Position numbers and translations under genes: made by a program. A stretch of 52,169 nucleotides of DNA, taken from the NCBI GenBank assembly GCA_035496715.1, contig DATJEK010000131.1, positions 1 to 52,169 of the forward strand, given 5' to 3'. Positions within the stretch are counted from its first letter, which is position 1; every line of letters starts with the position of its first letter. Under the pieces are notes generated by a model. That model made no database searches. It worked only from the letters and a program-made list of their open reading frames with translations, and was not told the origin of the DNA. The stretch is from Candidatus Eiseniibacteriota bacterium. Its GTDB lineage: Bacteria; Omnitrophota; Gorgyraeia; 2-02-FULL-51-18. Of the stretch, positions 3,425 through 50,935 are shown in pieces.

Positions 3425-3457
3425 GGATGGATTATACCACCCGGCCGCCGGGCGCCT

Positions 3458-5022: not shown

Positions 5023-5035
5023 GATCCCGGAGAGT

Positions 5036-8036: not shown

Positions 8037-8145
8037 CGCTTCTCCATTAAGGAAAGTGATTATAACACGGTCAACCCCGATGCCCAAAAAGAAACCCCGG
8101 CAGCTTGTGGCCGCCGGGGTTCCTCCCCCACTCGTCCGAAATCGG

Positions 8146-11100
8146 TTATGCCGCGACGCCCACCGCCCTGAGCATGTGCTCCGCCGTCGAGATCAGCAGG
8201 TTCACCGGGATGCGCCGGATCACCGGCAGGAGGAACCGGTAGCTGACGAGCTCCTTCTGACCGGCGAGGCCGCTGAAGATGCGCACGAGGACCTCGGGTC
8301 CCTGCGGCGGATTTTCGGCGCGCGTTTTGTAGTATTGGAAAAGACCTTCGGGGAATTTGCCGGTCTCGACTTCCGCGTAACGGATGGTGTTCCGGGACGC
8401 GTCGAAGTAGCCCGAGAAGAAGCTTCCGGCCGCGGAAGCCGTGTCGAAAAGCTCGCTCCAGCCGTACAGCGCCTCGTCGTCGAACCCGCCGACCGGCAGG
8501 TGGATGGTCCTCGCGTCGCCCCGCGCGGCCGCCCGTCCGTCCGAAGGATCGAACATCTTCACGACGACCCCCTGGAAATCGGCCCCGGCGGCTCCCTCGC
8601 GGATGAACGCGCCGTCGCGGATCGCCGAAACCGCCTGGAGGGCCGTCGCGCGCACGATCGAGCGGCGGGCTTCCGTCAGCTTGTCGAGGCCGACGAGGAA
8701 GAACGTCGTCCCTTTGCGGTAGCGCGGATTTTCGTGCTTCTTGGCGATCTGCGCGAACAGAAGCTGCGTCTGCGCCTTGAACTCGGCGGTATCGGCGATG
8801 GCGTTCATCGCGTCCACCGGCACTTCGAGCCCCAGCGGCGCGGCCGGCTCCTTGATCTCGGCGAGCGAGACCTGCGCGCGCATGGCGGCGGCCGCCAGAA
8901 GCGCCAGCGCCCCCTGCGTCGTCAGGCGGTCGCGGTCCGCTTCCTTGAACCGATCGTGGAGCCTCTGCAGCTCGCCGCGCGCGTCCGCGATGGAAAGCAG
9001 GGCGCGGTCATCGCCGCGGGCGAAGAGCTCGACCTGTCCCGCCGGTCCCTGCCGGATCGAGAAGACGGCCGAGACTTCGCGGCTCAGGCGCAGCGCGAGC
9101 TCGCTCCGCGAGGTCTTCAGCTCCTGCGCGCGGAAGACCTCCAGCACGAAAGCCGTGAGCGCCAGCGTGTCGGGTTCCGAAAACTTTCCGAGCGCGTCCT
9201 CCGCCAGGCGGGCGCCCGCCGGCCCGGGTTTCTTTTCCCCTTCCTTCTTTTTCTCTTCCCTCGTTTTCTCCGCCGACGCGAGGCCCGCGATCAGGAAAGC
9301 GCCCGCGAAGAGATCCTCGCGCGCGTCGACGTCGATCGACGTGAAATCGAGGCCGTTGAAAAGATCGGTCGCCGCCAAAAGCCGGTCCGTCGCGAAAACG
9401 TCGGCCGCGGGGACGAGCCTCAGCGCGCGGAGGATCCGGCGGATCTGTTCGGAAAGCTTCTCCTGGGCCTGCCGCGGGCCGGTGACGGGACGGCCGTCCA
9501 CGCGGACCACGTTGCCGGACGCGTCGAGCTCGACCGAGGCGATCAGGCGGCCGTTCAGGCGCGCTTCGATCTGCGTGTTGCCCTCGACGGTCCTTCCGGA
9601 GGAAAATTCGACGCCGGGGCTGGCGAGGAGCCGCGCGATGAGCCCCGAGAGCTCGGGGGAAGCCTGGCGCCAGAGCGCCGCGAAAGCGGCTTCGGGACGG
9701 ATCTCGCCCGACCCTCCGGAAAACGCATCGGGCGCGCGCAAGGGGCGCGGCGTCCCGGCGAGCTCGGCGAAAATCCGCGCTCGCGCGTCGGGGGCGGCGG
9801 GAACCTGGATCGGCGGGAAATCGATCACCCGCCCGGACGCGAAAAACGAGCCGCTCAGCGCGCCCTGGAGCGGCGCGGGGCCCATTGCGGCGGGCGTCTT
9901 CGCCGGCTCTTTGGCCGGGGGCGTCTGCGGTTTCTCGGCCGACGGCGTCTGAGGTTTCTCCGTGGGAGCCGGTTTGTCGTGCGGCGCGGGAGGCAGCGGC
10001 CTCGTCGCCTCGGCGCGCCGGATCATGTCGCCGACGCTCGAGAGAAACGATTCCAGGATCGCCCGGCGGCCGGGATCCGTCTCGTTCGGGAGCGCCGCCT
10101 CGCCGACCGGAGGAAGACGGCGCATGATCTCGAAATACTCGGCGCGCGTGGTGCGCGGATCGTAGGTGTAGGTCCCCCCGAGGCTCTGCCCGCGGACCGT
10201 ATTGAGATCGAGATCCAGCGTGTAGATGTCGATGCCGGTCGAGGTCCGGCCGTAACCGGAAATCAGCGTGATCACGTTGCCCTGGCGGTCGAGCTTGAAA
10301 CCCGGGAAGACCGCGCTGTAGGACGACGGCAGAGGGGTTTCCCGTTCGAACGCGAACGTGCGCGTCGTTTCCGGCCCGAGCTGGTAACCGGCCGTCACGG
10401 TGCGGTAGGTCAGCGTCAGCGAGCGCGCGTCCAGACGCACGATCCGGACGATCTGGATGTCGGAGCCGACGGCCGCGGCGACGTCCACTTTCACCCGGCC
10501 GGTGGCGGCCTCGAGGACGACCGCGTTGTCGCGTTCGGCGGCCGCGAGCGGGCTGTTGAACGCGCTCGTCACGAGGACGTGCTTCCTGCCCGGCGCGAAC
10601 TGCGCGGCCTGCGCGCGGTCGAGCGCCGCCGACAGCGCCGGAGGGATGTCCTGATAACGGTTCAGCGCCGTGCGGGTGACCGCGCCGGTCGCCGTGTCGC
10701 GGAGCGCGATGTTTTCCGTGATGAAGGGATAGGTCGCGGTGCCCGGCTCCTTGACTTTCTCGAGGATGACCTGGGTCGAGCCGGAAACCGCCAGCACCTT
10801 GCCGGCCGCCCCGACGAACGTGAACGTGTCGGTGCGCGGCGCGGTCCCGTTGGGATTGAGGATCGTCGCCGCCTGGTACGAGAGGACGACGGAATCGTTG
10901 CGGAGCTCCGTCACCTGCCGGCTCTTGATTCCGAAGAGATCGAAGTCGGCGACCTTCGCGCCGTTTTGAGCGTTCAGCACGAGGAAGTGCGCGCTCTGCG
11001 GAGCCGGCGCGTTTTCGTTCCGGTCGAACGCCGCGGTCAGGAATCTGCCGTCCGGCGTGAAGCGAATGCCGCCGGGCTGAACGAACGCGGGGAAATAGAC

Positions 11101-14100: not shown

Positions 14101-17100
14101 ATCGTAGGCGAAGGCGCCCGTGGCGTATTCCAGGCGCTCCACGTCGACTTCCTTGAGCGTGCCGATCGGGGTCGGAAAGAGCGACGTGACGGCGCTCTGG
14201 GTGATCTGACCCTGGCCGTTCAGCGTATAAACGGCGTCGCGCGTGAAAGCGAGCGCGCCGTAATTATAGGACTGCGCGATCCTCGCCGTCTCGTCCACGT
14301 GATAACCCGCGGCCCGGCCCGAGGCGTCGAAAACGTAGGTTTTGACCGCGCGCGATTCGAGGACGCCCTGGCGGCTCTTCACCTCGGTCGTCTCGACGGC
14401 GACGGGAGGCGTCAGCGAGGGGCCGCGGCCCGAGCCGTACACCGGGCGATACGTGAAGCTCTGCGTCTTGATCGTGTCCGAGCTCGGGAAGCGGCCCGCG
14501 CCGAAGGTCTTGTCCTCGGTGACGACCCGGTCGATCTGCTGGCCGTACGGGGACGTGTAAAACGTGGTCTTGAACGAGGAGCTCTGCAGCTCTCCCCCGA
14601 CCGTCCGGGTCACCGACTCCGTCGGGTTGCCGGCCGCGTCGAAGCCGAACGTCGTGAGGACGGACACGGACGCGCCGTTTTCGCGGAAAGTCTCTTCGCG
14701 TGAAACCACGACCGGGGACTGGAAGAAATGCCCGTCGAGCGTGTTGGACTTGCGGATGACGACACGGTCTTCGGTATGGGTCTGCGTCTGAGGCGCGCTG
14801 AGCGCGGCCTGCAGGGTCGAATCGGAGCGAAGCGCGGCCGGTGCCGGCGAGGACGGCTCGACGTCGATCGGAGCCTGTTCCAGGTAACTCACGTGCACGA
14901 TGTCCGAAACCGGCGCCTGGACCGTGGCGGCGACGATGCGCTTCTCGAGCGTGTCGAAGCCGAGCGGCGTGAAATTATTCTTGGAGGACAGCCTGGCGCC
15001 CTGGGCACCGTCCGTTCCGCCCGGAGGAGGCTCCTGGGCGAGCGTCCGACGGGCGTCGAGAAGCGTCCGGGGCTCGCCTTGACGCAGGACCAGGCCGATC
15101 ACCAGGGACTCGAGGAGCGCCGCCGCCAGCGCGACGGCCGCGAAATAATCGCGGTCCGAACGCATCCACTCCGCCCGGCCCAGGACCTCGCCGTCCCGGG
15201 TTTCCGTCAGAGAGAGGCGCTCGTCGCGGACGTAGCGGACCGCCAGCTCCCGGTCGAAGCGCGTGATCAAAAGGTCGAGCGCGCCGGCGCGCAACGTCAG
15301 CCGTGCGACGAAGCTGTCGCCGCCGTAGAGCTCGACGCGGCGCTGTCCGTCCGAGGTCTCGAACGGGGCGGTTTCGGTGTCCTTGGGCCTGGCGAAACGG
15401 TCCGGGGTCCGAACCGGTCTTTCTTCCCGCGGAAGCGGGGTTCCCGTGCCGGCTTCGGCCGAAGGGGCGGCGGCGGGAGCGTTCACGATCGCCGGCGCCC
15501 CGTCCGGCACGCGGCCGAACGGAAATTCGGCCGCGGGATCGAAACGGCGGATCACGCGCTGCCAGTCGGCGAGAGGATCCTCCGCGCGCGGCGCGACGAT
15601 TTCGGGCTTTTGGGGCGCGGGCTCGTTCTGCCCGGTCACCGGCAGCGGAGACGACAGGAGAACGGCGGCGGTCAGCGCCTTGAGGGCGTTCCACCTGCGG
15701 GCCTGGAAAGAGGCCAGGCGGGCACCCTCGGCCGGCGGGACCGGCGGAACGCCGCCCTGACCCCCCTGGATCAGATCCCCGAGCTCGTTGGCGGGCCGGC
15801 GGTGATCCGTCTGGAGACGGGCCACCACCTCTTGAAGGATCGGCCGTTCCCGAAGCGGCAGGATGCCCTTTTTATCGGCCGCGCCGGCCGTGTCGCCCGC
15901 GGGCGGTTTCTGCCCGAGGAGGATTCTCTCGTAACGGGCACGGTTGGTTTCGTGCAGCACCTGCGGAGTGATGAGGACGTAGGAGATCCCGCTCTCCTTG
16001 AAAATCGACGTCAGGTTCGGGGAATGGTAGCCGCCGGCGACGAAGACGGCCTTCGTCTGGCGCTCGGCGTCCATCTTCGCCGAGATGTTCCGCGCGAACG
16101 CGCGGTCCCTGCGGTAGGTGAGCTCGTAAAAGCGCTCGGCCTGTTTCACGAACGCGTCGAACTCCGGGTCGAGGAACACGGCCTTCTCGTAGCGGCTCTT
16201 CAGGTCCATGATCTTGCGGTTCACGAAACCGGTGAGCGGCACGACGCCGAACTCGGCTGAATCGGCGCGCCAGGCGGCGAAATCCTCGGGCGTCATCGTC
16301 AGCTCCAGCAGGCTGCGCAGGCGCCGGACCGACCGGTCCGCGCGGCAAAGGTCGGCCTCGTCCGCGGTCACGGCGAGCGCGGCGTAAAGGCGCTCCTCCA
16401 GAGCCGACATCTCGCGCACGACGCTCTTCGGGTCGAGCTCCTCCCCCGCGCGGAGGTAGCGCAAAAATTTACCGAGCTCGGGATAGCCCTCGAGGCCGCC
16501 GGCTTTCTCTTCGAGGAGGGCGTAGAACGCTTTTTCCTCCTGACGGTCGCGGCTCGAAATGCGGAACGGCGACCGGGAACCCGCGGACGCCAGGAGAGAC
16601 TTGAGCTGGGCCTCGCCGAGACCGGCCAGGAGCTTCTCCTGCTCGAGGTTTGCGGCCTTGAAATCGATGCCGTCTTCGAGCGACTTGAGATTTTTCAATT
16701 GGCGCAGGTGCGGGTAGGCGGCCAGGCTGACGCCGTTTTCCGAGGCGGCGCCGGAGAGGATGCCGGCGTATTCGACGGACGAGAGCTCTTCGCGGGAGAA
16801 CGCGGCGCGGCGGGCGTCGAGCGTCAGGAGGGCGCGGTTCAGCACGCGCGGCTTGAGCGCCTCGACGGCGGCGGAGATCTCCTCGAGATAGGCCTCGAAA
16901 CGGGCGCGCCCCGAGGCGATCCCCCGGTACACGGCCAGCGATTCCCAGTACAGGTCCTTGTCCTCGACGCCCCAGAGACGGAAATCGTGGTCCGAAGTCA
17001 GGTCCAGGTATTCGCTGCCGCTGACCTGCCCCTGCTTGAGGTAGGACAACGCCACCTTCTCGCGCCGCGCGGGCGTGCCCAGGACGCGGGCGAACGTCAG

Positions 17101-17430
17101 CGAGTCGTCGCCGGTGCCGGCTTCGAGGAAGACGAATTTGATTTTTTCCTTCTTGAAAATGATGTCGAGCGCGGCGGCCGTGTTCAGCTGGCAGGAATCG
17201 TTGGTGTGTGCGTCGCGCACGAGATAGACGGTCTTGTCGTTGCGGGTCGGGCGATAGGAATCTTCGATGAGAGCGACCGAATGCGGAAAGCGGAAGGCCG
17301 TGGGAACGGAAGCGGAAAGCGCCAGGTCCGCGGGCGGCTGGATCGTGCCGGCCATCGCGGCCTCGTTCAGGAAAAATGCGTTCACCAGTAGGGCTGCGAC
17401 GACGCGCACGGCTTTGCGGGTTTTTCTCAT
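8146..17430 (-). CDS. giant protein 1 (~3,094 aa from ATG 17430; ORF opens at TTG 17478): signal peptide, conserved N-domain, TM hairpin, YD-repeat-like region, conserved C-domain
   Basis: A single frame carries [27 protein letters not shown], paralogy with giant protein 2 at both termini, multiple YxYDxxGRL-like repeats and 3 GARL[A/S] motifs. AAGGA lies 10 nt upstream of ATG 17430. Confidence 0.85.
8149..9216 (-). other. giant 1 module 4 (aa 2755-3110): conserved C-terminal domain
   Basis: It begins right at GARLA 2755 and is collinear with giant 2 aa 10365-10712. Confidence 0.7.
9920..9967 (-). repeat. short tandem duplication (24-nt period) encoding TEKPQTP/AEKPQTP in a P/K/T-rich linker
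   Basis: On the plus strand, ggcgtctgcggtttctc (from 9920) recurs as ggcgtctgaggtttctc (from 9944), 16 of 17 identical. It sits inside the linker [30 protein letters not shown]. Confidence 0.6.
12079..13020 (-). repeat. about 2.5 tandem protein repeats of ~120-130 aa in giant 1 (aa ~1487-1800)
   Basis: The units share F.(V/F)NR.T..(I/L)T, P(G)(T)AAY(D/N), YFLA and (L/V)IAE(V/L)ES(F/Y)R, for example [35 protein letters not shown] against [36 protein letters not shown]. Confidence 0.55.
15001..15726 (-). other. giant 1 module 2 (aa 585-826): two-TM hairpin module
   Basis: [19 protein letters not shown] (aa ~595-613) and [21 protein letters not shown] (aa ~778-798). It has the same layout as giant 2 module 19 and is bounded by GARLA 585 and GARLS 827. 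Confidence 0.6.
15727..17430 (-). other. giant 1 module 1 (aa ~17-584): signal peptide plus conserved N-domain
   Basis: [34 protein letters not shown] and [12 protein letters not shown] are collinear with giant 2 module 1. The module ends at GARLA aa 585, against 581 in giant 2. Confidence 0.65.
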
Positions 17431-17478
17431 GGCCTGGTGATCCTTTGTCAAAAGCGGTTTTTCGTCAGCTTTTGGCAA

Positions 17479-17686
17479 CCCGGCCCGTCTCGAAAGACCC
17501 CGTCGGCTTTGCGCACACCTTGCGGCGTTTGCCCTTTACAAAAGCAAAACTTTCAATAACCAATTTTAAAAGAGCTTAAGTGATTGAAGTTTACGTGACA
17601 AGCGAACTTCTTTCAAGATCTTTATTAAGTTTTTTGGTTGAAATTATTGTTAAATCTTGGAAAGAAATGATTTCTTTTAAAAAGAA
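17479..17686 (-). promoter_or_regulatory. AT-rich intergenic island between the two giant genes; candidate sigma70-like promoter at 17588-17616
   Basis: There is a sharp drop in GC relative to the flanking sequence. The minus strand reads TTGAAA-N17-TAAACT (-35 at 17611-17616, -10 at 17588-17593), about 160 nt upstream of ATG 17430. Confidence 0.3.
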
Positions 17687-20600
17687 CTACGCAGACATGC
17701 CAACGGCGCGAAGCGCCAGGCGGGCACCCTGGAGCAGGACGCTGACGGGGATTTTTTTGGCCACGGGCAGAAGGAAGCGGAAACGGCTGTACTCGTCGCG
17801 GCGCGCCGCGCCGCTGAAAAGACGCACGAGCGTCGCCGCGTCGGGCAGGCGGTTCTCGGCATTTTCATTGTAGTACGCATAGATCTTGGGATCGACGCCT
17901 TCGAAGCGGATCTTACCGGTCCCCTCGTCGATGCGGTAGAAAGCCGCGGCCGCGCTGCCGAGACGGAACGCCTTGTTCCAGGCCAGCAGCGAATCCCCTT
18001 CCGAAGTCAGACCGCCGACGGGCACGTACACCGTGCGGCCGTTGTCGGCGCCCTCGGGGCGGCCGGCTTCGGCGTCGAAGAGATCCACGAGCGTGCCTTC
18101 GAAGTCCGCCGGGACCGAGGCCGTGAACGCTTTCTCCGAAAGCACCGACGCCTTGAGCTTCTCGAGGAGCTCGGACTGCCAGCCGGTCAATGAAGCGCCT
18201 CCGGTCAGCGCGAAACGCACGGACACGCCTTCCTTGCGGAAGAAATTATGGTGCGCGGCGGCCTGCGCGGCCATGAGGCGGAACTGCGCCTCGAACTTCT
18301 GCGGATCGCCGACGCGCGCGAAATAGTCGAGCGGCACGCGGAAGAGAACGGGAGCGCCCGCCTCCTTCTCGACGGCCGGCAGCGCGATCGAGGCGTTGAG
18401 GTCGCTCGTCTGCAGGAGGCCGTGCACGAACTGAGCGGTGACGGTTTCCGCATCGCCCTCGGAGCGGGCCCGGTCACGCAGGCGGGCATACGCGCCCTGC
18501 GGGTCGGGAATCGATAGGAGCGTTTCCTCGGCGCCGCCGGGGGCGACGTATTTGAGGCGCAGCTCGGCGCCGCCGGTCCCGCGGCCTTCTTCCAGGCGAA
18601 GCACGCGCGCGAAGCGCTCCTCGAGCTCCATCGCGAACGGCAGGCCGCGCTTTTCTTTCTGGGCCGCCCACAGCTCGAGCGCGAAGACGCCCAGCGCCTC
18701 GGTCTGGGCGGGCTCGAGCGCCAGCCGCGCGCCCTCGCCGTCCTTGCGGGACGCCTGTCGCTCGCGGCGCTGCCGCTGGATGCGCGCCTTGACCGGGGAT
18801 TCGACGTACTCCCGGTAGTCGGCGGAACGCTCGATCAGCCCGCGGGCCATGTTGACGGCGCTCAGATCCGTCCGGTCGATCTTCGGGTTCCTGAAAAGAC
18901 GCGCCAGGCGCGGGCCGTCGGTGAGGCGGCTCAGGAATTTGCCGATCGGGATCTTGTTGGGCGACATGCTCGCGTAGACCGGCACCGAATACTTGCGCCG
19001 GAGATAGTCGGTGAAGAGAATGAACTTTTCGCTGCCGGCGATCTCGCCGCAGAACCCGACGTCTTTCGCGGGCCGGTCGCGGTGCGCGGCGTTGTGGCGC
19101 GCGACCGAACCGACGATCGCGTCGATCGCGCGGAGGACCTGGGGATGGAGCTTCGCGAAGAGGTCGCCCAGCTCCGGGAGGTCCCGGCTGATGGCCACCT
19201 TCGCCCCGCCCTTCTGGGCGACGGCCTGCGTGAACACGTCGGAGATGACCTCGGCCGTCAGGTCGTTGGTCCCCACGCTCACGAAACCGGAGAGCGGGTG
19301 CTCGAGCAGTGCGTCCAGGTTCCGGTACGCGTCCACGGTCTCGACCATGATGCCGAAGAGCACGCTCTTGCGGACGGCGAGGAGCTTGTCTCCGCCCGTG
19401 ACCCCGACCGCGGCGTCGATCGCCTCCGGCAGGATCTCTTTTTCGAGATAATCCAGATCTTCCGTTCGGCGGACCATCGGGACCATGATCCGCAGTTCCG
19501 GCCGGCGGTCCGCCGGCAGGGCCGCCTGGGCCGAGTACAGTGCCGCGACCTGCCGGATCAGCAGCTCGCGCCCCAGCGGCGTCCGGTAGAAGTCGAAACC
19601 GGTGACGGGGCTCGTGTCGCCGCTGCGTTCCTGGAGCTTTCTGGCGGCGCCGAGGATGTTCTGGTTCTTGTCTTCCTGCAGGTCCATCAGGCGGAACGTC
19701 ACTTTCTTCCCGGCCAGATAGTCCCTCGAAAGGATCGCGCGGTACTGGTCCATGAGCTCGGCCAGGAATTCGTCCAGACGGCGCTCGCGTTCCGCGGGCT
19801 CGTCCCCGTTCAGCGCGTGGCGGATCAGGGTGTCGATCAGGATTTCCATCTGCGGACCCCAGATCTCCGTCCGCACGAGGCCGATGCCGTCGGCGAAGTT
19901 CTCCTCGAGACCCTCGGCGTGGTCGGCGGTGATGTTCGCGCGCAGCGGGAACGGCGTCGTCCGCGAAGCGAACCGCCGGGCCATCTCGTTCGTCTTCTCC
20001 TGGCGGTATTTCCGGATCTCGAGCTCCTCGACCCGCTCGGCGGAAGGCTCGATGAAGGCCTGGCTCTCGCCCTTGCTCTTCTTCGTGCTCAGGATCACCG
20101 TGTCGCCGACTTTCAGCGTGTCCAGGAGGCGTTTCTGGGCGGGGTCCGTCAGAAGGACCACCGCGGGCGGATTGATGAAGCTCTGCGAGACGATGACCCA
20201 GTGGCTCGAGAGCGTGGCGCTCGTCGTGATGATGCCCTTGATGCGCGTGCCGTAACGGGTCCAGATCCGGTTGATGCTGGTGACGTCCATGTTGTCACGC
20301 ACGACGAGCACCACCGGCTCGTGGTCCGCCCCGAAGCGCAGTTGATGCGTCTCGGCCTCGCGTTCGGCCGAGGACACCTGCGCCGCGATCACCTGGCGGA
20401 AGAGATCGACGACGTCGTTCAGCGTCCCCCGCAGATGCCCGACGGCCTTGCGGCGCAGCGTATAGTAGCGCTTGATCAGCATGTCCTCGTAGATCAGGCT
20501 GGCGAGATTGCGGTTTTCGCGGAGCATGCGGGCGCGCAGTTCGAGGCGCTTCTGCGGCGTCCCGACGTACTGGACGCGGAAACCCTCGAGCAGGCTGATG

Positions 20601-38600: not shown

Positions 38601-41600
38601 TCGCGCAGCGCCAGGGCCGACCGCGCAATTTCCCGCCCTTCCTCGGTAGCGGCCAGGCGCGCGCCGAACACGGACCTCGCTTCGTGCTCGCTGAATGCCG
38701 TCCTGCCGTCGACGCTCAAGAGCACCAGGTCCTCGCTGTCTTTCGGGCGGACCGTGATCACGTGGCGCCTCTCGGAGGAGTAGCCGCGCGTGCCTTCGGG
38801 CATTTCCCAAATCTCGGTGAGGTACGGATAGACCTGACGCTCTTCCTGATCCTCGAGGCTCACTTTCAGGGAGGCCAGCCTTACCGGAGGAGGATTCAGG
38901 ATCGAATGGTTCTTGATCGCGCGAAGCGTCGCGGCGTCGGCCGGATCGGACCCGGATTTTTCGACGTAACACCGCTGCGCCGCGATCTCGAGAGCCCCGC
39001 TCCCGTCGGCCACGCGGAACCGGAGATGGCCGGGAGCGGCGTTGATCGGCAGATCGATGAGCGGATAAGGGGTCCCGTCCACCACGGCCACGAGCTGGTC
39101 GGTCGCACCCCCGTCGTGCGGCGCGATCTCGCTGCCCACGATGAGCCTCTTCGAAAACCGCAGCCACGTCGTCGAACGGTCCGCGAGATCGGCGCGCGCG
39201 ATGTAAAATCCTTTCAGGTCCCGCCCGACGACGACGCGGGCATTGGACGGGCCGTCGCCGATCGTGAAGATCAATCGCTGCCAGGGGCCCAGCGCCAGGG
39301 TCGTCTTCCCCTCGAAAGCCGTCGCGGCCAGGCGCGCGCCGCGGTAGGAAACCTCCTCTTCCAGGAAGGCCTTGAACTTCTTGGTGCTGATGCGGTTGGA
39401 CTCGTTCACGGGATACACGAGCTTCGCGTAGGCGGCGGCGTTCTTCTCGGTCAGGACGAAGGGCTCGAATCCCGCCTTCAGGAGGACGTAATTCATGATG
39501 AGGTTGGAGGTGCGCTTGTTGCCGTCGTGGAAGCCCTGCAGGTTCACGAGGCCCGTGAAGACGCGCGCGGCGACCGTGATCGCGTAGTCCGGGTCCGCCT
39601 CGATGCGCTGCGCGACCTCGTCCGAGAAGAGATAGGCGAAGACGGCCTGCATCTCGTCGAACTTGTCGGCGTCGTAGAAACCGGCGCCACTGATCAGGCC
39701 TTTTTTGCTCAGCGCCATGTGGAAATCCCTGAACTCCGTGGCCAGCCAGCGCGGCGCCATCGGCCCGTTCATGACGAGCTTGTTGAACCGCCGGATGGCC
39801 GTCCCGTACTGCCGGATCGCCTGTTCGTTGAACGTCTCCGGGTCGAAATGCTGGTCCGGGTCCTCGATCTTGTCGTTGATCTCGCGGAGTCTGCGGCCCA
39901 TCGTGCGCAGGCGGCGCAGCACCAGCCGCTCGTCCAGGCCCTTCTCGATCTCCCGGTCGTACCAGTGGCTGCCCGTTTCGGCGGCGGGCGAAGCGGCCGC
40001 GATCAGCGCGTCCTCGAGGACCGAGTCGAAATCGGCGAACCGGTTGCCGGTGGAGGGGATGAGGCTCTGGATCCCCTCGAGGACGCGGAGCGCCGCCAGC
40101 TTTTGCCCGTGCTCGGCGAATTCTTTGGCGCCTTCGAGCCTCTCCCGGGCGCGCGTGATGAAAATCTGCTCGGCGGCGCTCATCGGATAGGCGGAGTGGC
40201 GCGCCCTCTCGAGGACGATGTCGAGCCTCGAGAGCGTGTTGGCGAAACTGGCCAGACGCGCGCCGGACGTCGGCTGAGCGCCGTGCGGAGGAAGCGCGGC
40301 GAGCGCCGCCCGCTCGTCCGCGTCGGGGTTCAGCGCGATCGCGTAGGCGCTGAACGGCTCCAGGAATCCGCGCCGGACGAAGCGGTCTCGCAGGTAGACC
40401 GGATAGCCCATCGCCGCGCTGTCGAGAAACGGCGGATACCAGGTGTCTCCGCGCACCGCGTGCACGCCGTCGGCGGCCAGGCCGTCCAGGAGCGCCTTGC
40501 GGACCGGCACCGCGAGCTTTCCGCCGCGGTACGCGGGATGGAGCAGGAAATCCGCGATGATCACGTCGTTTTCCTTGAAACCGACTCGCTCGTATCCGGG
40601 CGTCAGCGGCCTCTCCCCTTCGCTCAGGGCGAACTCATGGCGCTTCACCTCGGTGAACGGCACCGCCAGGACGAAACCGACCGGGACCGAGGGGTTTTTG
40701 TCGTCGGAGAAAACGTAGGCGCGGCCTTTCGGGACGCGGGGGTTGATCTTTTCCAGCAGAAGCGCGTCCTGCGCCTCCCGCTCGACACCGCGGATCTGGC
40801 TCTGGACGTAGCGGGCCTCCCGGGCGGTGACGCGCTCGGGCACGAGCAGGGTGTCGCGCAGCTCGTTGTCGGGCTGGGGCGTGCCGTAACGAGACATCTT
40901 GAACGAGCGGTCGATGAAGAGCGGCTCGAACGCCTTCGTGTCGAAAATCCGCAGGAATTCTTTCATGTCGACTTTTTTGGCGCGGATGCCGCCGCCCAGA
41001 TCGATCTGCTCATAGGCCAGCCGCGCCCCGGAAAATCCGGAGCGGGCCGCTTCGTCCGCGGTCAGGACGGCCGACGCGGGGAGCCCCGCCTTTTCCAGCG
41101 CGCGCCGCACCGTCTCGCCGGCCGCCCCGGAGAGGTCCGACATCGGCGGAGGACCGTCGTTGATGCGGCTCATCGACGCGCGCTCGATCGGCACCTGCAC
41201 GCGGTCGAGCTCCTCTTTCTGGCGCTCCACTTCGACGCGGAACCGCTCGCGCGCCGCCGCCGAAGAAAAGTCGACGGTGTCGAACGCCAGCAGTCCCTCG
41301 AAACCGCGGGTCAGCTCGGGGCGTCCGCTGAGCGCCGCGTACTCGGAAAGCGTCTGCCGGGCGTTGAAAACCACCTGGTCGGCGAAAAACATCGGCTCGT
41401 CCACGCTCGCGTCGGGCACGAGGGCCGGCCTCTGCGAGGGGTAGTTCAGCCCGAAGCTCCGCTGGTTCTCCTCGAGGTCGGCGCCCGACAGGCCGATGAC
41501 GAGCTGGCCCGGAAGGCCGGTCACTTCGGCGCGGTCCCAGACGCCTCGATAAAAAAACATCCTGAAATCGGGCGGAAGAGACCCCTCCTCGAGGAGCTCC

Positions 41601-44600
41601 TTCACCGCCACTTTCACGGTCATCTCGGTGATCGAATGGGCGCCGTGGTCCATGAACCCTTCGCCGTTGACGACGACCATCTTCGGCTTTTCGTCCCGGA
41701 GGATGTTCTTCATCCGCTCCAGGTCGGCGCGCTTGGCCGTGCCCTGACGCTCCTGGGCGTACCAGCTCGAGCTGATCGGGTAATGGATGTCGGCGTGCGC
41801 GACGCCGCGCGCCATGAGCTCGGTCTGCTCCTCGGGAAAGCGCAGGAAGACCTTGATGTCCTGCATGAGCTTCAGGTCCGTCGACCCCCAGCGCGGCTTG
41901 GCGTCCGAATAGGCGCCGAGCGCCTCACGGACGGCGCGCACGGCGGCCTGGTTCGCGAGCCGTCCTTTCAGGCCCGACTGGAAATTCATGCGCAGAAGGA
42001 GGAGCTTCGCCCGCAGCTCTTGTTCGCGCGCGGGCATCAAAGACCAGGTGTCGAAATTCTCGGGGTTCCCGGTGAGCGTCTTCCCCTTCAGGACTTCGAT
42101 GAGCTCGCGAAGGTATTTTTCGTCGGCCGCGCGGAACGAGGCCTCGCTCGCGGCTTCGGCGGCGACCGCCGCCGTGTCGGTGTCCGAAAATTCGGCCGCG
42201 CGCGAGAGCGCCGCGAGCGCGTAGGCGTCGGCCACGGCGGTATATCCCGGAGCCGTATAAAAGGAAGCCAGCCGCTGTCCGGCCTTGCCGGCCGGGGCCG
42301 CCCACTGGCTCACCTGGAACTGGGCCGCCAGCGAAAGGTCGTCGAGATGCGGGCCGATGTGGACGATCGTGTCGCCGGGCGCCAGACCCAGCCGGGCGGT
42401 GACTTCTTCCGGCCGCACCAGGCTCGCTTCGACGGCCGACGCGGTGCGCCCGCGCAGCGACTCCCAGGACTCGGAAGCCGTGAGCGCCGCCAGGTGCGTC
42501 CTGCGGATGGCGAGGATCCGCGCGTCTTCCTTGCCGGCGGATTCCAGAAAATCGGAGACCTCGAGCGCGCGGACGGGCTTCCCCGTCTCCTTCGACAGCG
42601 CGATGAAAAGCCGCGCGCGCATCGCCTCGGTCCATTCCACGTCGTGGAAATCCCACGGGTGCGTCTGGTAGCGCAGCGTGCCCGAAGAGCTGGGCTCGGT
42701 GATGAGGACGCTGCCTTCCCCGCCGGCGCGCAGCGCGGTGACCGGATAATCCGGCGACGCGTCGCCCTCGACGAAGCGGCGGACCGACTCGCGTTTTTCC
42801 TTGCCGTTGATGATCGTGATCACCGTCGGCGACCCGAGAAGGAGCTCGCGGGGCCCCAGCGTCACTCCGCCGATGCGGATTTTCCCGTCGGCCGTCTTGA
42901 AGTGCTGCATGCCGCCGCGGTCCTTGATGTTGCCGGCGGCCGCGTGATAGCTGAGCAGCTGCAGCGTCACGCCCTGGTCGAAGGCGGTGCCCTTTTCGTT
43001 GAACGCGATGTGGCCCTCGCCGGTGTACGAAGGCCCCGCGCTGAAGAGGACCACGTCCGCGCCGCCGCGGTCGGTGACGAGCCGCGACATCGACCGCGCG
43101 TAGGCGTCCAGGGCCTCCAGATACGCGCGCTGCGGATGACCCGCCTCCAGCGTCCCTTTCAGGAAATCGTCCAGCCGGATCCCCTCGCGGTCGATGGATT
43201 CGTTCACGGCGCGGAACGCCGCCGCGTCGAGGCGGTTGGCGTCCGGGCGGTCGATGTCGCCGCTCGAGACGTCGCCGTAGAAAAGCCGGCGCTTGTCGCC
43301 GCGGATGCCGATCTTGTCGAACGCGTGATTCAGCTCGTTGGCGTACGAATAATAGTCGTCCCGCGACTGCGGGAAGATGCTGTCCAGATGCGACGCGAAC
43401 ACGCGTCCCATGTCGGGTTTTTCCGAAAGGTCCACCCCGGCGGACGCCAGGAACGTCCGTGTCGGCTCGTCCCAGTTGCCCCAGGCGTTGAGATAGGAGG
43501 CGAGCGTCGTCAGGCCCAGCCACTGGGTGTTGCCGGTGGCGAAGAGGATGAACACGTCCCGGTCCTTCTGTCCCGCCTCGTCGTATTGCCGGCGTTTTTT
43601 CTGGATGGCGCCCAGGAGCGCCGCGGCCTGGAGCGCGCCCGTGTGCGCGATGTCCTCTCCGATCCGGAGCTTCGTCTTCCCGGCGCGGCCGAACACCTCT
43701 TCGTAGAGCGCGATCCCCTCGGGCCGGCCGTCGGACAGAGCCAGGCGGGCGCCGGGCGGGTTCGCCGTCGAACGCGCGACGATGGTTTTCCACGCGCGGG
43801 CGCCGACGCTCGACTCGGCGAGGCTGCGCTCGAGGCGGGCGACGGTCATCGCCCGGAATTCGTCCTCATGGACGGCCACGAAGAGGCCCGCCATCTGCGC
43901 GGAAGCGAAACTCTGGTGCCAGCCGAATCCGTCGAAGCCGAAACGCCGCAGGAGCGCGTTCACGGGCTGGAGGATGAGGTTGAGCGGCCAGATGTAGCCC
44001 GTCGGCCGTTCGACCGCGCGCGGGAACACGTAGATTTTGAGCGCGTCGCCGTCCCGCTTGACCGCCGCCAGGTCGAAATCGATGCTCATGGATTTGAGAA
44101 CCGCGTTGATCCGGCGAAGCCAGGCCTTCAACGCCTCCGGCCGCCCCTCCAGCACGAAACCCCTGGCCTTCCATCCGCTCAGCTCCCGGACCGAGACCTC
44201 GTCGCTCGTGAAAAGCGGCAGCGACGCCGCCCGCTCGACCGGAAGCGTCCCGTCGGGGAAGATCTTCCTCATCTCGCTCCAGGGATACAGCTGGTTGTGG
44301 TCATGACCCAGAACGGACGCGCCGCCCTTCACGCCTTCGTTGCGGAAGGTGACGTACGCCGAAGCCGAATCCGCAAGATCCACGAACGTGTCGGCCCCGC
44401 CGTCGGTGAGGACCTGCGGCCGGTGAGCGGTCGCGATGTCGAGCTCGGTGCCCCGGACGGTCGGAAAATCGTTGGTCCGGACCGTACGGTCGGCCCAGGA
44501 AACGCGCGTGCGCGCGTCGTCGAACGTGTCGAGGCAGAGCGGGCAGCGGTCCTTCGGATAAAGCCTCGTGTCGGCGGCCTTGCGCGCGGGATTCAGGATG

Positions 44601-47600
44601 GCGGCGAAAGAGTTTTCGAAGCGGCGCGTCCGCGACGCCTCTCCGACCCAGGTCACGTCCGGAACGAGGCCGGCGGCGATGTCCGACTCGGCGACGGCGC
44701 GCAGAACGTCGTTCGACGGCGCCGCAGCCAGCCGCGCCCCGAAAAGAGTCCCCTGCTCCGGCTTGGAGTTCAATTTCACGATCTCTTCGCGGAGCGCGCG
44801 GAAGTCCGCGGTCAGCGCCGTCAGCTTGGTCCTCACCCCGCGCGAACGGTAGGAGCTCATTCCCGACCAACGCATCACGACGGCGATCGCCCGACCGACC
44901 TGGTTGACCGCCTCCACGGTGGCGGCGTCGCCGCGGCGGACCTGGTTTTGGAGCGCCGAAGCGGCGTTACGGATGAGGTAGGATCCGAGCCTGCGGTGCG
45001 CGTTCAGTTTAAGGAGGCGTCCGGCCAGTACTTCCGCCCGCCCGGCGAGCTTCTTTTCTTCGGCGGAGAGTCTGGCGCCCTCCGGGGCGCGGCCGTTCGG
45101 CGCGGACCCAGGTTTCGTGTCGAGGAGAACGCTTGCCGTGGTGAAGGGTCCTTCGGGCCTCGTCTCGGTCCGGAGACTGAAGGTTCCGACCTTGGGACGG
45201 CTCTCGGAGCCGCTTCCCTCGACCAGAAAACGAACCTGTTTGACGCCCACGCCGCGGCCGCCGAAAAACTGGCCGTAATTCTCGTCGCCTTTCGTGCTCA
45301 GCCCCCAGATGGAAAGGAGCGTGTCGGCGGAAAACGCGTCGATCTCCCCGTCCGTGACGCGGGAGTGCCCCTGCGGGATGTAGGCGCCGACCACGAGCTT
45401 GCGGTCCACGTTGCGACGGAAAATGCCGCGGGCCGACACGGCTTCGAGGATCGCGGGCGCTGTCATCGAGTCCGCCCCCGGCACCGCTTCCCGAAGGCCC
45501 TGGATCGCCAGGAGGCGCTCCGGCTCGAACGCCGCGAGCTCCTCCGGCGGGACGGGCAGATAAAATTCCTCCTGGGTCAAAAGCGCCCCGTCCCTGTCGC
45601 GGCGGTAGACGCCCTTCTCCTTGGCTTTCCTCTTCAAGTCCTCGACCGGCACGGAACCGGGATTCGTGACGGAGTAAAGGAGCTTCCCGTCGGGCTGCTG
45701 CCGCAGGAGCACTTCCACGAGCTCCCGCCGGCCCGCCGGCTGCGTCTGCTGGGCGTCGATGGCGTTTTTGATGAATTCACGGACCACCGACTCGAGCTCG
45801 AACTCGGCCAGGCCCGTCAGAAGAAGCGGCTGGGTCATCTCGACCCGGAACTGCACGCGGCGGTCGCGGACGATGTCCCGCACGACCTCGCTCTGGAAAT
45901 AATCGCGGATCACTTTGCCCGCGTCGATCGACCGGCCGTCGGGCTCGCGCGGCGTGCGGTCCGGATACAGCTTCATGTAGTCGCGCGCCAGGATGCGGAT
46001 CGACTGCTTGAGCTCGTCCATGATCGCGTTGGGTTCCTTGCCGGCGGGGTCGATCGGTTCGCCGAACACGACCGTGTAACGGTACGGCGTGGCCCAGCCG
46101 CGACGCCCGAGGAGGCGGCGGAAGTACATCGTGACGAAGTTCCACAGCGTGAACTGGTGCGGGATGTTCGTGTCGATGAAGAACGGCACGATCGGCTTGC
46201 CGCTCTCGGCCGAGATCTCGGCGACGCTCTGCTTGAAATGACCGAGGTTTCGTTCGAGCCCTTTGAACGGATCGCCGCGGTGGATGTGCGGGCGTCCCGC
46301 CGGGAAGACCGCGTACACCGAACCCGGCCTGCTCAGCCGGCGGCGGATCTGCTCTTTCGGCGAGGCCGAAAAGGGCCGGACTCGGAGCGTCCAGGCGGCG
46401 AGGCGCTGGAGCTTGTTGAGCCGGTCCTCGTGCTCGATCACCAGCCGGTAGCTGGCGTCGGGCTGGCGGATCGAGCGCACCAGGCCCGTCAACCGCGCGA
46501 AGAAGAGCCGCCAGCGGCCCATGCGGCCGATCTGCCTGGCGATCACCTCGTCCCGGTAGCCGCTCTTCAGCGCGAACACCCCGGAGAGGCGCGCCATGAA
46601 GCGCTGGAGGAAATTGGAATGATCGAGCTGGGCGATAAAATGCGGCATGCGTCCGTCTCGGAGGATCGCTTCGGACGTGAGGATCAGGCCGTCGGTGCCG
46701 TGCGCGTTCAGATGGTTGCCGGCCAGGAGAAAAGACTGTCTCTCGGCCTGCGGCAGATTTTCCAGGCCCTCGACCTCCACCTTCACCTGGCGGCCGATCA
46801 CCTGTTCATAGACCGCCCCCCAGAGGGCGGGACCGAAAAAGTTCCTGTAGAAAAGCTTCGTCCGCCGCCGGGCGGCCTCCTCGCTGACGGGGGCCTGCTT
46901 CGCGAGACGGGCGCCCTGCAGTTCCGTCTGCCGGTGCGCGAGCCAGTCTTCGACCGCGCGCTGCGCCTGATCGACCGAAACGTGCAGCAGGCGTCCGCCG
47001 ATCTGCAGGATCTCCGTCTCCCCGGTCTGGGTCGGGTTCACGGCGATCGCGAACCGGCCCTGAGCCGAAACCGAAGACGGCACCGCGTAGACTTCCCAGA
47101 TCTGAGCCAGATACGGCGTCCCGCTTCCGTATTCGTCGACGAGGTTGAGATTGATCGTCCGCGCGGCGCGGCGCGCGTTGCCGTGCCGGATCTGGCGCAG
47201 GATCGCGTCGTCGGCCGGCTCGCCGGTGATTTTCTCGATCGTCGCCCGCCGGCCGGAAACGAGGAGCCGCCCGTCCGGCTGAACCGAAAGATCCAAGTGC
47301 CGCGCGCGCACGTCGATCGGAAGATCCATGAGCGGATACTCCCTCGAACCGTCGAGGATCGCGCTCAGCACGTAGCCCGACTCGAGGTCCACGCCGCCGA
47401 GAGTCAGCGAACGCTCGAAGCGCAGCCGTCCCGAGGGGGTGCCGATCAAATCGGCCTTCGCCACCGAGAAGCCTTTCGCGTCGCGCCACACGGCGACGCG
47501 GGCGTTCGAACCCGACGTCCCGAGCGTGAGGACCAGCGTCTCTCCGGGGGCGAGCGAGACGGCCGCCTGCCCGTCCAGCGCGATCTGCCCCGAAGGGAGC

Positions 47601-49825: not shown

Positions 49826-49975
49826 GAAATAGAGAGGTGTCTATTTTTTTTAAACTCAACCGGTTGGCGGTATGTGCTTTGTCGATCGGCAATTACGTAC
49901 GTTTTGGAGAAGTATGCCTGATCCCATTCTCAAATACAAATCGGAATCGAGGCGGCCCCGAGAGGGAGAATAAGC
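49826..49975 (-). promoter_or_regulatory. AT-rich intergenic island upstream of giant gene 2 (promoter/5' leader region)
   Basis: 150 nt of AT-rich sequence lie between the panE stop (49976) and the longest-ORF start. The AT-richness continues into the first ~50 nt of the ORF, so the true start may lie further downstream. Confidence 0.3.
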
Positions 49976-50935
49976 TTATTTAAGCGTATTTAAGCCCGGC
50001 TGAGCGGATTTGCGGAGGATTTCTTCATAGATTCGTCGATTGGCGGGCACGGGAATCCCCGCCGATTCGGCCAGGCGGACGATGGCGCCGTTCAGCGCGT
50101 CGATATCGGTTCGCTTTCCGCGGCGCAGGTCCTGGAGCATGGACGGCAGATGCGCGGCGGTGCTGGGAATGAGCCTGCCCTCCAGGAGCTCGAGGTAAGC
50201 CTCGGCCGAGGGCGGCTCCAGATCGAGCCCCTTCTTCGCCGCGACGGCATAGCATTCCCGGACGGTCTCGCGCATCCAGGCGCGGGTGGCGTCGTTTTTC
50301 AGGATCTCGCCGTAGGGCATCTCGCCCAGCGTGCAGATGCCGTTCAGCGCGCAGTTGTAGACGACTTTGGCCCAGATCCGCTTCTCGATGTCCTCGACGG
50401 CGACCGATGGGATCTTCGCGGTCGAGAAGGTCTGGGCCGCGCGCACGGCGCTGAGCTTCGGACGGGCCCCGGGAAGCGCGCCGACGGCGACGGGCTCCGC
50501 GATCACCGTGACGCGCGCCGTGCCCGGCGTCGTCTCGACGCCGAAGATCACCCGCCCGGCGAGAAACCGGTCCGCACTCACTTTCTCGAGGATCGTTTCG
50601 ATGTTTCCCAGGCCGTTCTGCAGAGACACGAGCACCGTGTCTTCCTTCATGAGCGGCAGGAGTTCCTCGACCGCACGCCGGGTGTCGTAGGACTTCACGG
50701 TGAGGAGGATGAGATCGAAGGACGCCTTCGAGCGCGCCAGTTCCGCGGCGTTGGTTTCGAGGTCGAACGCCTTGATCCGGTAGTCCCCCCAGATGCCGGT
50801 GATCGTGAGACCGTTCTTGCGGATCGCGTCGAGGTGCCACGCCCTTCCCAGCAGTGTCACCTCGTGGCCGGTGCGTGCCAGAAAGCCGCCGAACACGCTG
50901 CCGACGCCGCCCGCGCCGAAGACGAGGATCTTCAC
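49976..50935 (-). CDS. panE: 2-dehydropantoate 2-reductase (ApbA/PanE family)
   Basis: KILVFGAGGVGSVFGG is a Rossmann motif, and LLTVKSYD, SLQNGLGN and SMLQDLRRGKRTDIDALNG are typical of PanE. The likely start is GTG 50935, forming a GTGA overlap with the queC stop. Confidence 0.8.
   Translation of the reverse strand: MKILVFGAGGVGSVFGGFLARTGHEVTLLGRAWHLDAIRKNGLTITGIWGDYRIKAFDLETNAAELARSKASFDLILLTVKSYDTRRAVEELLPLMKEDTVLVSLQNGLGNIETILEKVSADRFLAGRVIFGVETTPGTARVTVIAEPVAVGALPGARPKLSAVRAAQTFSTAKIPSVAVEDIEKRIWAKVVYNCALNGICTLGEMPYGEILKNDATRAWMRETVRECYAVAAKKGLDLEPPSAEAYLELLEGRLIPSTAAHLPSMLQDLRRGKRTDIDALNGAIVRLAESAGIPVPANRRIYEEILRKSAQPGLNTLK

Follow-up and report, generated by a model that had tools for sequence, protein, structure and literature searches.

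How are two neighbouring giant genes related when their ends match and their middles share nothing, and what could the proteins they encode do? The question is raised by contig DATJEK010000131.1 of assembly GCA_035496715.1 (Candidatus Eiseniibacteriota bacterium in GenBank, Omnitrophota in GTDB), of which we analysed positions 1 to 52,169, henceforth the window. It encodes, head to tail, a protein of 10,712 amino acids (aa), here called giant 2, and downstream of it a protein of 3,110 aa, giant 1. We found that the two share an N-terminal domain (N-domain) and a C-terminal domain (C-domain), which form a chassis around unrelated cargo, and that the cargo is punctuated by a recurring pentapeptide, GARLA. 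We propose, with a probability of roughly 0.45 for the whole explanation, that such proteins are Sec-exported polyproteins that would be processed at the pentapeptide by their own TIKI-like N-domain, and that the cargo would serve as effectors.

We compared the two giants by BLASTP and obtained exactly two high-scoring segment pairs, with nothing further shared. The N-terminal pair aligns aa 18-526 of one protein with aa 18-526 of the other at 43.8% identity (E 8.9e-116), and the C-terminal pair aligns aa 2745-3110 of giant 1 with aa 10361-10712 of giant 2 at 33.9% identity (E 2.7e-38). An initial annotation, made by eye, had described the N-termini as collinear and about 40% identical and the last ~340 aa as collinear; both descriptions hold, and the similarity of both termini is statistically significant. 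The same annotation had placed a GARLA at the end of the N-terminal part at like positions in the two proteins and another directly before the C-domain, which we locate at aa 585 in giant 1 and 581 in giant 2 and at aa 2755 and 10365, respectively; it had also counted 23 modules in giant 2, which is the number of cargo segments delimited by GARL[A/S/G]. Self-BLAST detected no internal repeats in giant 2, which rules out module duplication inside this protein. Two labels given to giant 1 could not be confirmed. Its supposed YD-repeat-like region holds only three Y.Y[DN]..G and five D.QGR motifs and has no RHS/YD Pfam match at E ≤ 0.01 and no PDB sequence match at E ≤ 1, and in place of the supposed transmembrane hairpin a single strong hydrophobic segment stands out (Table 1). 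Giant 2 has at most two weak internal hydrophobic segments in 10,712 aa.

The chassis is not confined to the window. A word-index search with the N-domain returned 13 proteins, mostly truncated by contig ends and one of them named Candidatus Omnitrophota; in several of the 13, GARLA follows right after the N-domain. For a family survey, one genome per species was scanned, with tblastn confirmation, and 79 loci were retained. The confirmed N-domain relatives number 127, nearly all labelled Omnitrophota or, in third-party metagenome-assembled genomes (MAGs), "uncultured Planctomycetia". By this survey, the N-domain family is restricted to Omnitrophota. The 79 loci contain 93 ORFs (open reading frames) with the N-domain, up to four per genome, and 13 loci carry a tandem pair. 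The shortest of these 93 ORFs, at 517 aa, consists of the domain alone, and the longest exceeds 3,900 aa, at which point the stretch retrieved came to an end; with giant 2 included, the family spans ~520 to more than 10,000 aa. No family relatives were present in the 2.9 million viral contigs of IMG/VR, and a viral origin was ruled out on that ground. One truncated member, P0006 (522 aa), carries an ISL3-type transposase fragment at its C-terminal end (Pfam E 6e-5), which suggests that an insertion sequence disrupted this gene.

The family falls into two clades. Members of the second, more distant clade have N-domains 23-30% identical to that of giant 2, and this clade includes empty chassis in which an N-domain is followed by a C-domain with nothing between (P0011, 893 aa; L035, 906 aa). 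The chassis principle holds in both clades, with a rear part of several types. The initial annotation had inferred a scaffold with swappable, motif-delimited cargo. Its core stands, in that the ends are conserved and the middle is variable family-wide; what does not stand is the generality of the 350-aa C-domain and of the motif, since GARLA-type delimiters of the middle occur in one clade only. Nor did the family surveys find the end domains to be common parts of ordinary proteins without cargo variation.

We examined the pentapeptide in detail. With its 18 GARLA, six GARLS and one GARLG, giant 2 breaks down into an N-domain, 23 segments, a C-domain and a tail of 13 residues. Copies of the strict pattern [GA]AR[LM][AS] number 24 in giant 2, against 0.44 in shuffles. 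The motif is written with GGC, GGG, GGA and GGT for its glycine, with CGC, CGG, CGT, AGG and AGA for its arginine and with CTG, CTC and TTG for its leucine, in roughly gene-wide proportions, and the flanking DNA is unrelated from copy to copy. Because all these synonymous codons are used, selection must act on the peptide and not on the DNA, and the candidate explanation of the motif as a DNA repeat or recombination site was rejected on the same evidence. Tandem Repeats Finder reported trivial arrays only.

The same signal appears across the family. Over 249 distinct instances, the information content is 2.7-3.7 bits at each of positions 0 to +4 and no more than 0.4 bits at any flanking position; in the flanks, S/A at -1 and P/S at -2 are slightly favoured and hydrophobic residues are underrepresented. 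Motif-bearing members hold 235 copies per 96,429 cargo residues, against five per 78,332 residues in the non-family ORFs of the same loci, none per 23,140 residues in the conserved neighbours and none in the other genes of the window. Members with an N-domain more than ~33% identical to that of giant 2 carry 0.3-4.4 motifs per 1,000 aa, and shuffling predicts 0.0-0.4 copies per protein for the motif-bearing members. The placement is also regular: in 27 of the 39 motif-bearing proteins the first motif lies 73-157 aa after the GGxH of the N-domain, just past the domain, and the sites at the borders of the N-domain and the C-domain fall in linkers of low predicted local distance difference test (pLDDT) score. 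Tandem paralogues differ in density (2.2 motifs per 1,000 aa in giant 2 and 1.0 in giant 1; 4.4 and 0.8 in the pair at locus L007). In the distant clade, k-mer enrichment detected neither the pentapeptide nor any other enriched k-mer. A literature search for the motif returned "GARLA" only as a surname and no paper on a bacterial polyprotein with it.

The N-terminus of both giants has a basic stretch followed by a hydrophobic run of 14-15 residues and a conserved A-x-A, which, read by eye, form a putative Sec signal peptide or signal anchor. The A-x-A reads AMA↓G in giant 1 and A-F-A↓D in giant 2, and its A is nearly invariant in the N-domain alignment A1. The initial annotation had proposed a role in export, anchoring or processing; what the proteins themselves display is this apparent Sec-type signal with its A-x-A and a probably hydrolytic N-domain.

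The N-domain comprises ~470 aa. AlphaFold2 predicted it with a pLDDT of 78.5 as an alpha/beta core split by a helical insert of ~300 aa (residues 173-472), and in giant 2 a disordered linker (residues 527-580) leads from it to the first GARLA. We assessed conservation in an alignment of 89 sequences covering both clades. Invariant residues are H90, E118, G169, E171, R457, G482, G483 and H485, and nearly invariant ones are Q87, D88, A89, N92, D172 and D458. In the predicted fold the strands run over residues 82-88, 114-117, 166-170 and 476-482, and each is followed by one of the invariant residues H90, E118, E171 and H485. TIKI-superfamily enzymes have in common a set of two histidines and two glutamates plus a basic residue (PMC6254334): VvRRSP has E3900-x-H3902 with 28 residues to E3930, and R4001 with 29 to H4030, and in Bcr135 H85 is separated by 28 residues from E113 (PMC6254334). 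The N-domain has D88-x-H90 with 28 to E118, and R457 with 28 to H485, a spacing that fits this catalytic set; its first acidic residue is Asp where that of VvRRSP is Glu.

Profile searches point the same way at low scores. On the R..GGxH segment, the Pfam family ChaN/"Tiki superfamily" (PF04187) matched eight of the 89 members (best E 0.0015), at 16-19 bits against a cutoff of 27.7 and over profile positions ~158-205 of 213 only; DUF5682 matched four of the 89 (E 3.9e-6, 25.9 bits against a cutoff of 26), and DUF5694 matched two members below threshold. The three families match at equivalent profile positions, all under their curated thresholds. PF01963 and PF05139 gave no match in N-domain members. 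In a Foldseek comparison against the PDB, EreC ranked second and fourth (E 0.18-0.23, template modelling score ~0.16-0.21) in a list without a significant entry. We consider it probable that the N-domain belongs to the TIKI/ChaN/erythromycin-esterase superfamily. It is like members of the superfamily in the order and spacing of the residues and, going by the AlphaFold2 model, may also resemble them in placing these residues after parallel beta-strands; like them, it would be extracytoplasmic or toxin-borne. It differs in the ~300-aa helical insert that splits the core and in the Asp as first acid, and it reaches the threshold of no database model. To our knowledge, no TIKI-superfamily member heads a giant modular protein.

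Between the ends, giant 2 carries seven recognisable domain types, listed in Table 1, and each Pfam or PDB match lies within a single segment. Several segments have the length of a free-standing enzyme, for example the 876-aa Enzyme I-like one (18734-21361, aa 9489-10364). This module has one detectable relative in 5.8 billion clustered proteins, a 763-aa GAF-Enzyme I protein with 28% identity. The cargo of giant 2 is, by its matches, extremely diverged from ordinary enzymes. Cargo identified by eye in relatives includes PGK, GNAT, M48-like peptidase, ABC1 kinase, radical SAM, methyltransferase, HEAT, amylase-like, histidine kinase and HTH modules, of which only some were checked against Pfam.

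Cargo is rarely shared. The 109 family proteins form 5,886 pairs, of which only 81 have cargo in common at E < 1e-10. For 23% of all cargo residues a relative occurs in some other member, a figure that drops to 2.8% in giant 2, where a single acyltransferase module supplies it. Giant 1 and P0015 (2,609 aa) share cargo blocks at 34-53% identity, and two of these blocks are swapped in order, which implies rearrangement within the cargo. In three of six informative pairs, the shared module starts or ends at a motif, or at an equal offset, in both partners.

Hypervariable cargo between orthologous loci, the different block order in giant 1 and P0015 and the few shared modules bounded by motifs are what one would expect of a strict polymorphic toxin locus, in which a conserved delivery part carries a cassette-exchanged toxin neutralised by an immunity protein; the initial annotation had drawn this analogy. 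Most of the evidence goes the other way. Variation is confined to an internal stretch of many modules between two conserved ends, and no variable toxin tip closes the protein; neither gene is followed by a small immunity-type ORF or an orphan cassette, and housekeeping genes surround the pair. At the thresholds used, no Rhs/YD, CDI, PT-HINT or known toxin-tip domain was detected. The motif has no conservation at the DNA level, and cargo GC is uniform at 0.66-0.69. The analogy fails because the C-terminus is conserved and immunity genes are absent, and we regard a polymorphic toxin in the strict sense as highly improbable.

Word-index searching retrieved no homologues of the C-domain, and exhaustive HMMER searching of 1.84 billion representative proteins was needed. 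It located the C-domain in 36 proteins of up to 5,841 aa, in which it always runs to the last residue, and 14 of 14 complete ones also carry the N-domain. A motif copy stands just before the C-domain in both giants and in most family sequences read. Across the 14 proteins, pairwise identities of the N-domain and the C-domain correlate weakly (r = 0.35), which is not decisive either way on whether the two ends evolved together. AlphaFold2 predicted the C-domain with a pLDDT of 84 and a predicted template modelling score of 0.85 as an N-terminal helix, a beta-meander and a Rossmann-like alpha/beta part, and Foldseek returned no significant match in the PDB. The C-domain is unlikely to be an enzyme because only W252 is invariant and no polar residue is conserved. 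In most copies another [GA]AR[LM]A lies 8-10 residues from the end, in the last helix, and the termini are -AA or -SA.

The rear of the chassis comes in several types. The 350-aa C-domain was rejected as a universal feature, its hidden Markov model (HMM) matching only one of the 79 loci. In the second clade a different C-domain of ~225 aa sits flush with the C-terminus of at least 18 complete ORFs, 893-2,611 aa long (members include P0011, L035:9809-12526, L036, L037, L038, L040, L045, L056 and L063), and hhalign detected no profile similarity between it and the C-domain of the window. The other C-termini of the close clade are mutually unrelated, except within the tandem pair at L007 (1716-9173 and 9983-17479), whose C-terminal ~300 aa are alike only mutually (24% identity, E 5e-5) and whose 11 and two motif copies echo the pair in the window. 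Family termini read -AA or -SA in the motif-bearing clade and -RAL, -RSL or -KAL in the other, and by eye the ends of both clades follow a pattern of hydrophobic strand, KK/RR-I-P/D and helix. An HMM of the distant-clade tails gave no significant match to the close-clade tails, and a family-wide tail of ~30 aa is unproven.

Taken as a polyprotein, a giant would be exported through Sec. Its own N-domain, acting in cis or in trans, would then cleave it at the pentapeptide, with Leu-Ala as the likeliest scissile bond. The products would be the N-domain, ~23 separate cargo proteins and the C-domain. The N-domain would be an active hydrolase of the TIKI/ChaN/erythromycin-esterase superfamily, the cargo would reach a host or prey cell as a train of effectors, and the non-catalytic C-domain would contribute to targeting, assembly or translocation. 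We read the motif as a putative processing site because, as in the protease sites of viral polyproteins and MARTX toxins, a five-residue consensus with random flanks lies between units and at the borders of the end domains. The N-domain is the candidate protease because it is the sole conserved catalytic-type domain, because the first site lies on a flexible tether of ~55 residues, and because Tiki and RRSP, members of the TIKI superfamily, are sequence-specific endopeptidases (PMC6254334). The cargo includes Fic, kinase, dehydrogenase, Enzyme I-like and acyltransferase modules, and there are protein-binding repeats (WD40, and HEAT in relatives); such types would be of use only in a cytoplasm. 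We suggest that such cargo may act in the cytoplasm of another cell because ATP-, NAD- and PEP (phosphoenolpyruvate)-dependent enzymes stand behind a signal peptide in a phylum that has been proposed to be predatory or parasitic (PMC10066038). The N-domain may have peptidase rather than esterase activity. The most specific version, a chromosomal polyprotein cut at about two dozen GARLA sites by its own TIKI-type peptidase with the products co-delivered into host or prey, strikes us as somewhat unlikely.

Several observations weigh against the proposed polyprotein. Cleavage at the motif is a prediction from sequence, and the export signal was read by eye. The TIKI assignment consists of sub-threshold matches and residue spacing: the N-domain profile retrieved no TIKI protein among PDB sequences, hhalign against E. 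coli YbaP (TraB family) returned nothing, and Foldseek gave no significant PDB match. Even a member of the superfamily need not be a peptidase, because the superfamily also holds esterases and a haem-binding protein. PGK (in relative P0016, by eye) and Enzyme I-like modules are atypical of toxins, and no secretion system or outer-membrane component was found among the genes near the giants. The motif-free clade keeps all putative catalytic residues, so that motif processing would be neither the ancestral nor the only role of the N-domain. Finally, one motif copy of giant 2 falls within a C-domain helix that is predicted with confidence, which is odd for cleavage and fits docking equally well.

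The last two points bear on two other explanations. The polyprotein could be cut in trans by a separately encoded enzyme, such as a periplasmic C-terminal-processing (PDZ) protease, a signal-peptidase-like enzyme or a C39-type peptidase, with the N-domain otherwise employed in ester hydrolysis, ChaN-like cofactor binding or anchoring. This would account for a motif that is clade-specific while the invariant residues of the N-domain are alike in both clades, and for the strongly unequal motif densities of tandem paralogues in one genome. The small or hydrophobic termini (-AA, -SA), with the motif again 8-10 residues from the end, also fit, as we take such termini to resemble the substrates of C-terminal processing proteases. 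A separate protease is nevertheless unlikely in our estimate: no protease gene lies in the window or recurs beside family genes, and in most members the first motif follows the N-domain at a fixed short distance, as cleavage in cis predicts.

Alternatively, there would be no cleavage, and the giants would remain intact as membrane-tethered or surface-exposed multi-enzyme scaffolds, like beads on a string, with the pentapeptide as a docking or hinge motif to which, for instance, the C-domain, the N-domain or a chaperone might bind while the protein is exported or assembled. Besides the motif copy within the C-domain helix, the motif-free clade is consistent with this, as it implies that such proteins are viable without delimiters, and published Omnitrophota giants are described as membrane-associated multi-domain single polypeptides (bioRxiv 10.64898/2026.06.07.730766). 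Against an intact scaffold, a strict pentapeptide with random flanks at unit borders would be the signature of a protease site and not of a linker, and we found no repeated binding domain that could read 24 copies, giant 2 being free of internal repeats. We hold this explanation, too, to be improbable, and retain the self-processed polyprotein as our working explanation.

Table 1. Positions of the two giant genes, their parts and the flanking upstream genes in the window (aa numbering of the 3,110-aa ORF for giant 1)
Feature	Position	Strand	Description
Giant 2	17687..49825	(-)	Single ORF, 10,712 aa, stop within coordinates; in-frame GC3 (GC at third codon positions) 0.87
Giant 2 N-terminal signal	49688..49825	(-)	Putative; RHRRTDRK n-region, hydrophobic LRLLSAALIVTFLA, then A-F-A↓D
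Giant 2 N-domain	48248..49648	(-)	aa ~60-526; putative catalytic D88, H90, E118, E171, R457, H485
Giant 2 first GARLA	48071..48085	(-)	aa 581-585, low-confidence linker after N-domain
Giant 2 cargo	18734..48070	(-)	aa 586-10364; 23 segments of 111-1,067 aa, bounded by GARL[A/S/G]
Acyltransferase (PlsC-type)	46562..46783	(-)	aa 1015-1088, module 971-1582; Pfam E 7.8e-6
NagB-like (glucosamine-6-phosphate deaminase family)	42686..43117	(-)	aa 2237-2380, module 2025-2932; E 3.4e-10
Fic (AMP-transferase type)	39395..39643	(-)	aa ~3395-3477, module 3188-3495; 22.4 bits against a gathering cutoff of 24
D-2-hydroxyacid dehydrogenase (PHGDH-like)	37049..37948	(-)	aa 3960-4259, module 3885-4288
Protein kinase-like	34658..35080	(-)	aa 4916-5056, module 4759-5140; E 3e-5, below gathering score
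WD40 beta-propeller	23990..24955	(-)	aa ~8291-8612, module 7572-8638; E 5.7e-36
PEP-utilising enzyme (Enzyme I-like)	19007..19948	(-)	aa 9960-10273, module 9489-10364; E 1e-28
Giant 2 C-domain	17690..18733	(-)	aa 10365-10712, opens with GARLA
Giant 2 tail GARLA	17714..17728	(-)	aa 10700-10704, 8 residues before C-terminus, in last predicted helix
Giant 1	8146..17478	(-)	ORF of 3,110 aa from TTG, the first possible start
Giant 1 N-domain	15901..17301	(-)	aa ~60-526; putative catalytic D89, H91, E119, E172, R457, H485
Giant 1 first GARLA	15712..15726	(-)	aa 585-589
Giant 1 cargo	9217..15711	(-)	aa 590-2754; no Pfam or PDB match
Giant 1 hydrophobic segment	15085..15141	(-)	aa 780-798, sole strong internal transmembrane candidate
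Giant 1 GARLS	14986..15000	(-)	aa 827-831
Giant 1 C-domain	8149..9216	(-)	aa 2755-3110, opens with GARLA
PanE/ApbA ketopantoate reductase	49976..50980	(-)	Upstream; adjoins a family gene in seven other genomes
PhoU-like gene	51603..52169	(-)	Assigned by eye, via a homologue; cut by window end

The coordinates of these features are collected in Table 1. The window has a GC content of 67%, and all its genes lie on the minus strand. The codon-position GC pattern (GC3 ~0.87) identifies both giants as coding on that strand. The plus strand shows antisense ORFs of up to 3,986 aa (8056-14703, 19082-25102, 30551-37366 and 37829-49789), which codon-position GC identifies as shadow ORFs of a high-GC coding sequence, not genes. 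Spurious long ORFs are common in high-GC, apparently metagenomic sequence such as this, and we therefore considered that the giants themselves could be artefacts of mis-assembly, gene fusion or non-coding DNA. A single frame shows a uniform codon-position pattern across 32 kb, dozens of independent assemblies contain the same conserved ends, the motif is under selection at the peptide level and all domain matches are in frame, which makes an artefact barely credible. We judge this explanation and the polymorphic toxin locus to be much less likely than either a separate protease or an uncleaved scaffold.

The only in-frame starts of giant 2 are GTG (49825) and TTG (49807); near 49760, AGGAGA is followed by an ATG that is out of frame with the gene. 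For giant 1 the true start is likely the ATG at 17430, with AAGGA 11 nt upstream, which gives a protein of 3,094 aa that corresponds to database protein P0014. The stop of giant 2 and the giant 1 ORF are separated by 208 bp. AT-rich gaps precede both giants (17431-17686 and 49826-49978), and giant 1 probably has its own promoter. Directly downstream, ilvD overlaps the end of the giant 1 ORF, and the downstream neighbours are IlvD, RNase H-like, M15 dipeptidase, YfiH, SulP, thioredoxin and pyruvate kinase genes.

Upstream, the gene order PhoU-like/PanE/giant is kept in seven other genomes, and this conserved order identifies the window as the orthologous locus of an Omnitrophota genome. PanE stands beside a family gene at loci L003, L005, L006, L008, L023, L026 and L029, and the PhoU-like gene lies upstream of one at L003, L004, L006, L008, L011, L026 and L029. 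The gene at 51603..52169 is ~80% identical to the gene in the same position at seven related loci. Across the seven genomes, identity is ~80% for the PhoU-like protein, 44-62% for PanE and ~40-45% for the N-domain, and the cargo has no detectable similarity. By these comparisons, the giants evolve far faster than the neighbouring genes. The recurrent neighbours of family genes are, by eye, PhoU, PstB, QueC, PanE and two-component genes; the QueC-like gene, part of the conserved upstream synteny, could not be placed in the ~440-bp gap at 51164-51602. Clustering of the ORFs in the 79 loci for secretion or protease partner genes recovered housekeeping synteny only. At one further locus, L080, a gene ending in the C-domain (L080:1219-9371) shares 62 nt with the ORF upstream of it, perhaps because of a frameshift, and is followed by MazE-like, OEP, membrane-fusion (MFP) and MacB-type ABC transporter genes; this is the sole locus at which we saw export components beside a family gene.

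We compared the giants with known modular systems. MARTX toxins and viral polyproteins appear closer to them in logic than polymorphic toxins. Polymorphic toxins (Rhs, CDI; PMC3482391) are alike in combining a conserved part with a variable payload and in having several paralogues per genome, whereas in the giants the payload is internal and multi-module, between two conserved ends. Like the giants, MARTX toxins, which are found in Vibrio and relatives, are giant proteins with conserved ends around variable effector modules. MARTX toxins carry only few effectors, and their modules are separated by cleavage after Leu by a protease domain within the protein. In the giants, the candidate protease is the N-terminal TIKI-like domain, the site is a strict pentapeptide and there are up to 23 modules. 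The RTX or glycine-rich repeats of MARTX toxins were not found in the giants by Pfam or self-BLAST, neither giant matches Peptidase C80 at E ≤ 0.01, and no type I secretion genes lie among their neighbours in the window. MARTX toxins have a C-terminal signal for type I secretion, whereas the apparent signal of the giants is N-terminal and of Sec type. One MARTX effector, RRSP, is itself a TIKI-fold endopeptidase (PMC6254334).

Viral polyproteins (of picorna-, poty- and nidoviruses) likewise encode many proteins in one ORF, separated by a short consensus with variable flanks. Their sites are read by a protease of the same ORF, which is what we propose for the giants. The giants differ in being chromosomal bacterial genes at a housekeeping locus, in their putative signal peptide and in cargo that is not replication machinery.

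Giant proteins have been reported from Omnitrophota. Giant 2, with seven domain types, no repeats and an N-terminal signal, fits class 1 of Nielsen & Lui (2026), the "multi-enzyme" class, in which many distinct Pfam domains tile one polypeptide with a signal peptide (bioRxiv 10.64898/2026.06.07.730766). Published Omnitrophota giants are described with C39/S8 peptidase domains, many transmembrane helices, flanking genes resembling type II/IV secretion genes, and pilZ (bioRxiv 10.1101/2023.11.21.568195; 10.64898/2026.06.07.730766; PMC10066038), features that the window lacks. Giants of the Archaeovorin/dockerin type have dockerin/TSP3 repeats, C39/S8, SecA-like domains and tens of transmembrane helices; Pfam detected none of these repeats or domains in the giants of the window, which have few hydrophobic segments. 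The same papers raise cleavage into several products and state that the cleavage points are unknown (bioRxiv 10.1101/2023.11.21.568195; 10.64898/2026.06.07.730766; PMC10066038). In the passages of these papers that we searched, there is no mention of a shared TIKI-like N-domain, a shared C-domain or the pentapeptide. What is new here is the chassis with its explicit delimiter; the modular giant protein with many cargoes, and the polyprotein, were already known.

Omnitrophota are characterised by giant genes, which occupy a large part of their small genomes. The chassis and the delimiter together would provide a first parsing rule: structure prediction and annotation could proceed on protein-sized units cut from the giant ORFs, and a family member could be recognised by its ends even where the cargo is unique. 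The question of whether and where the giants are cleaved becomes directly testable. If they are cleaved, the strategy of MARTX toxins and viral polyproteins would extend to a new phylum and a new type of protease, the TIKI-like domain would acquire a role, and the cargo would amount to a candidate effector catalogue of uncultured predatory or parasitic nanobacteria. Each giant would then be an "operon" at the level of protein as well as an effector train, with a chassis that gains new cargo over evolutionary time.

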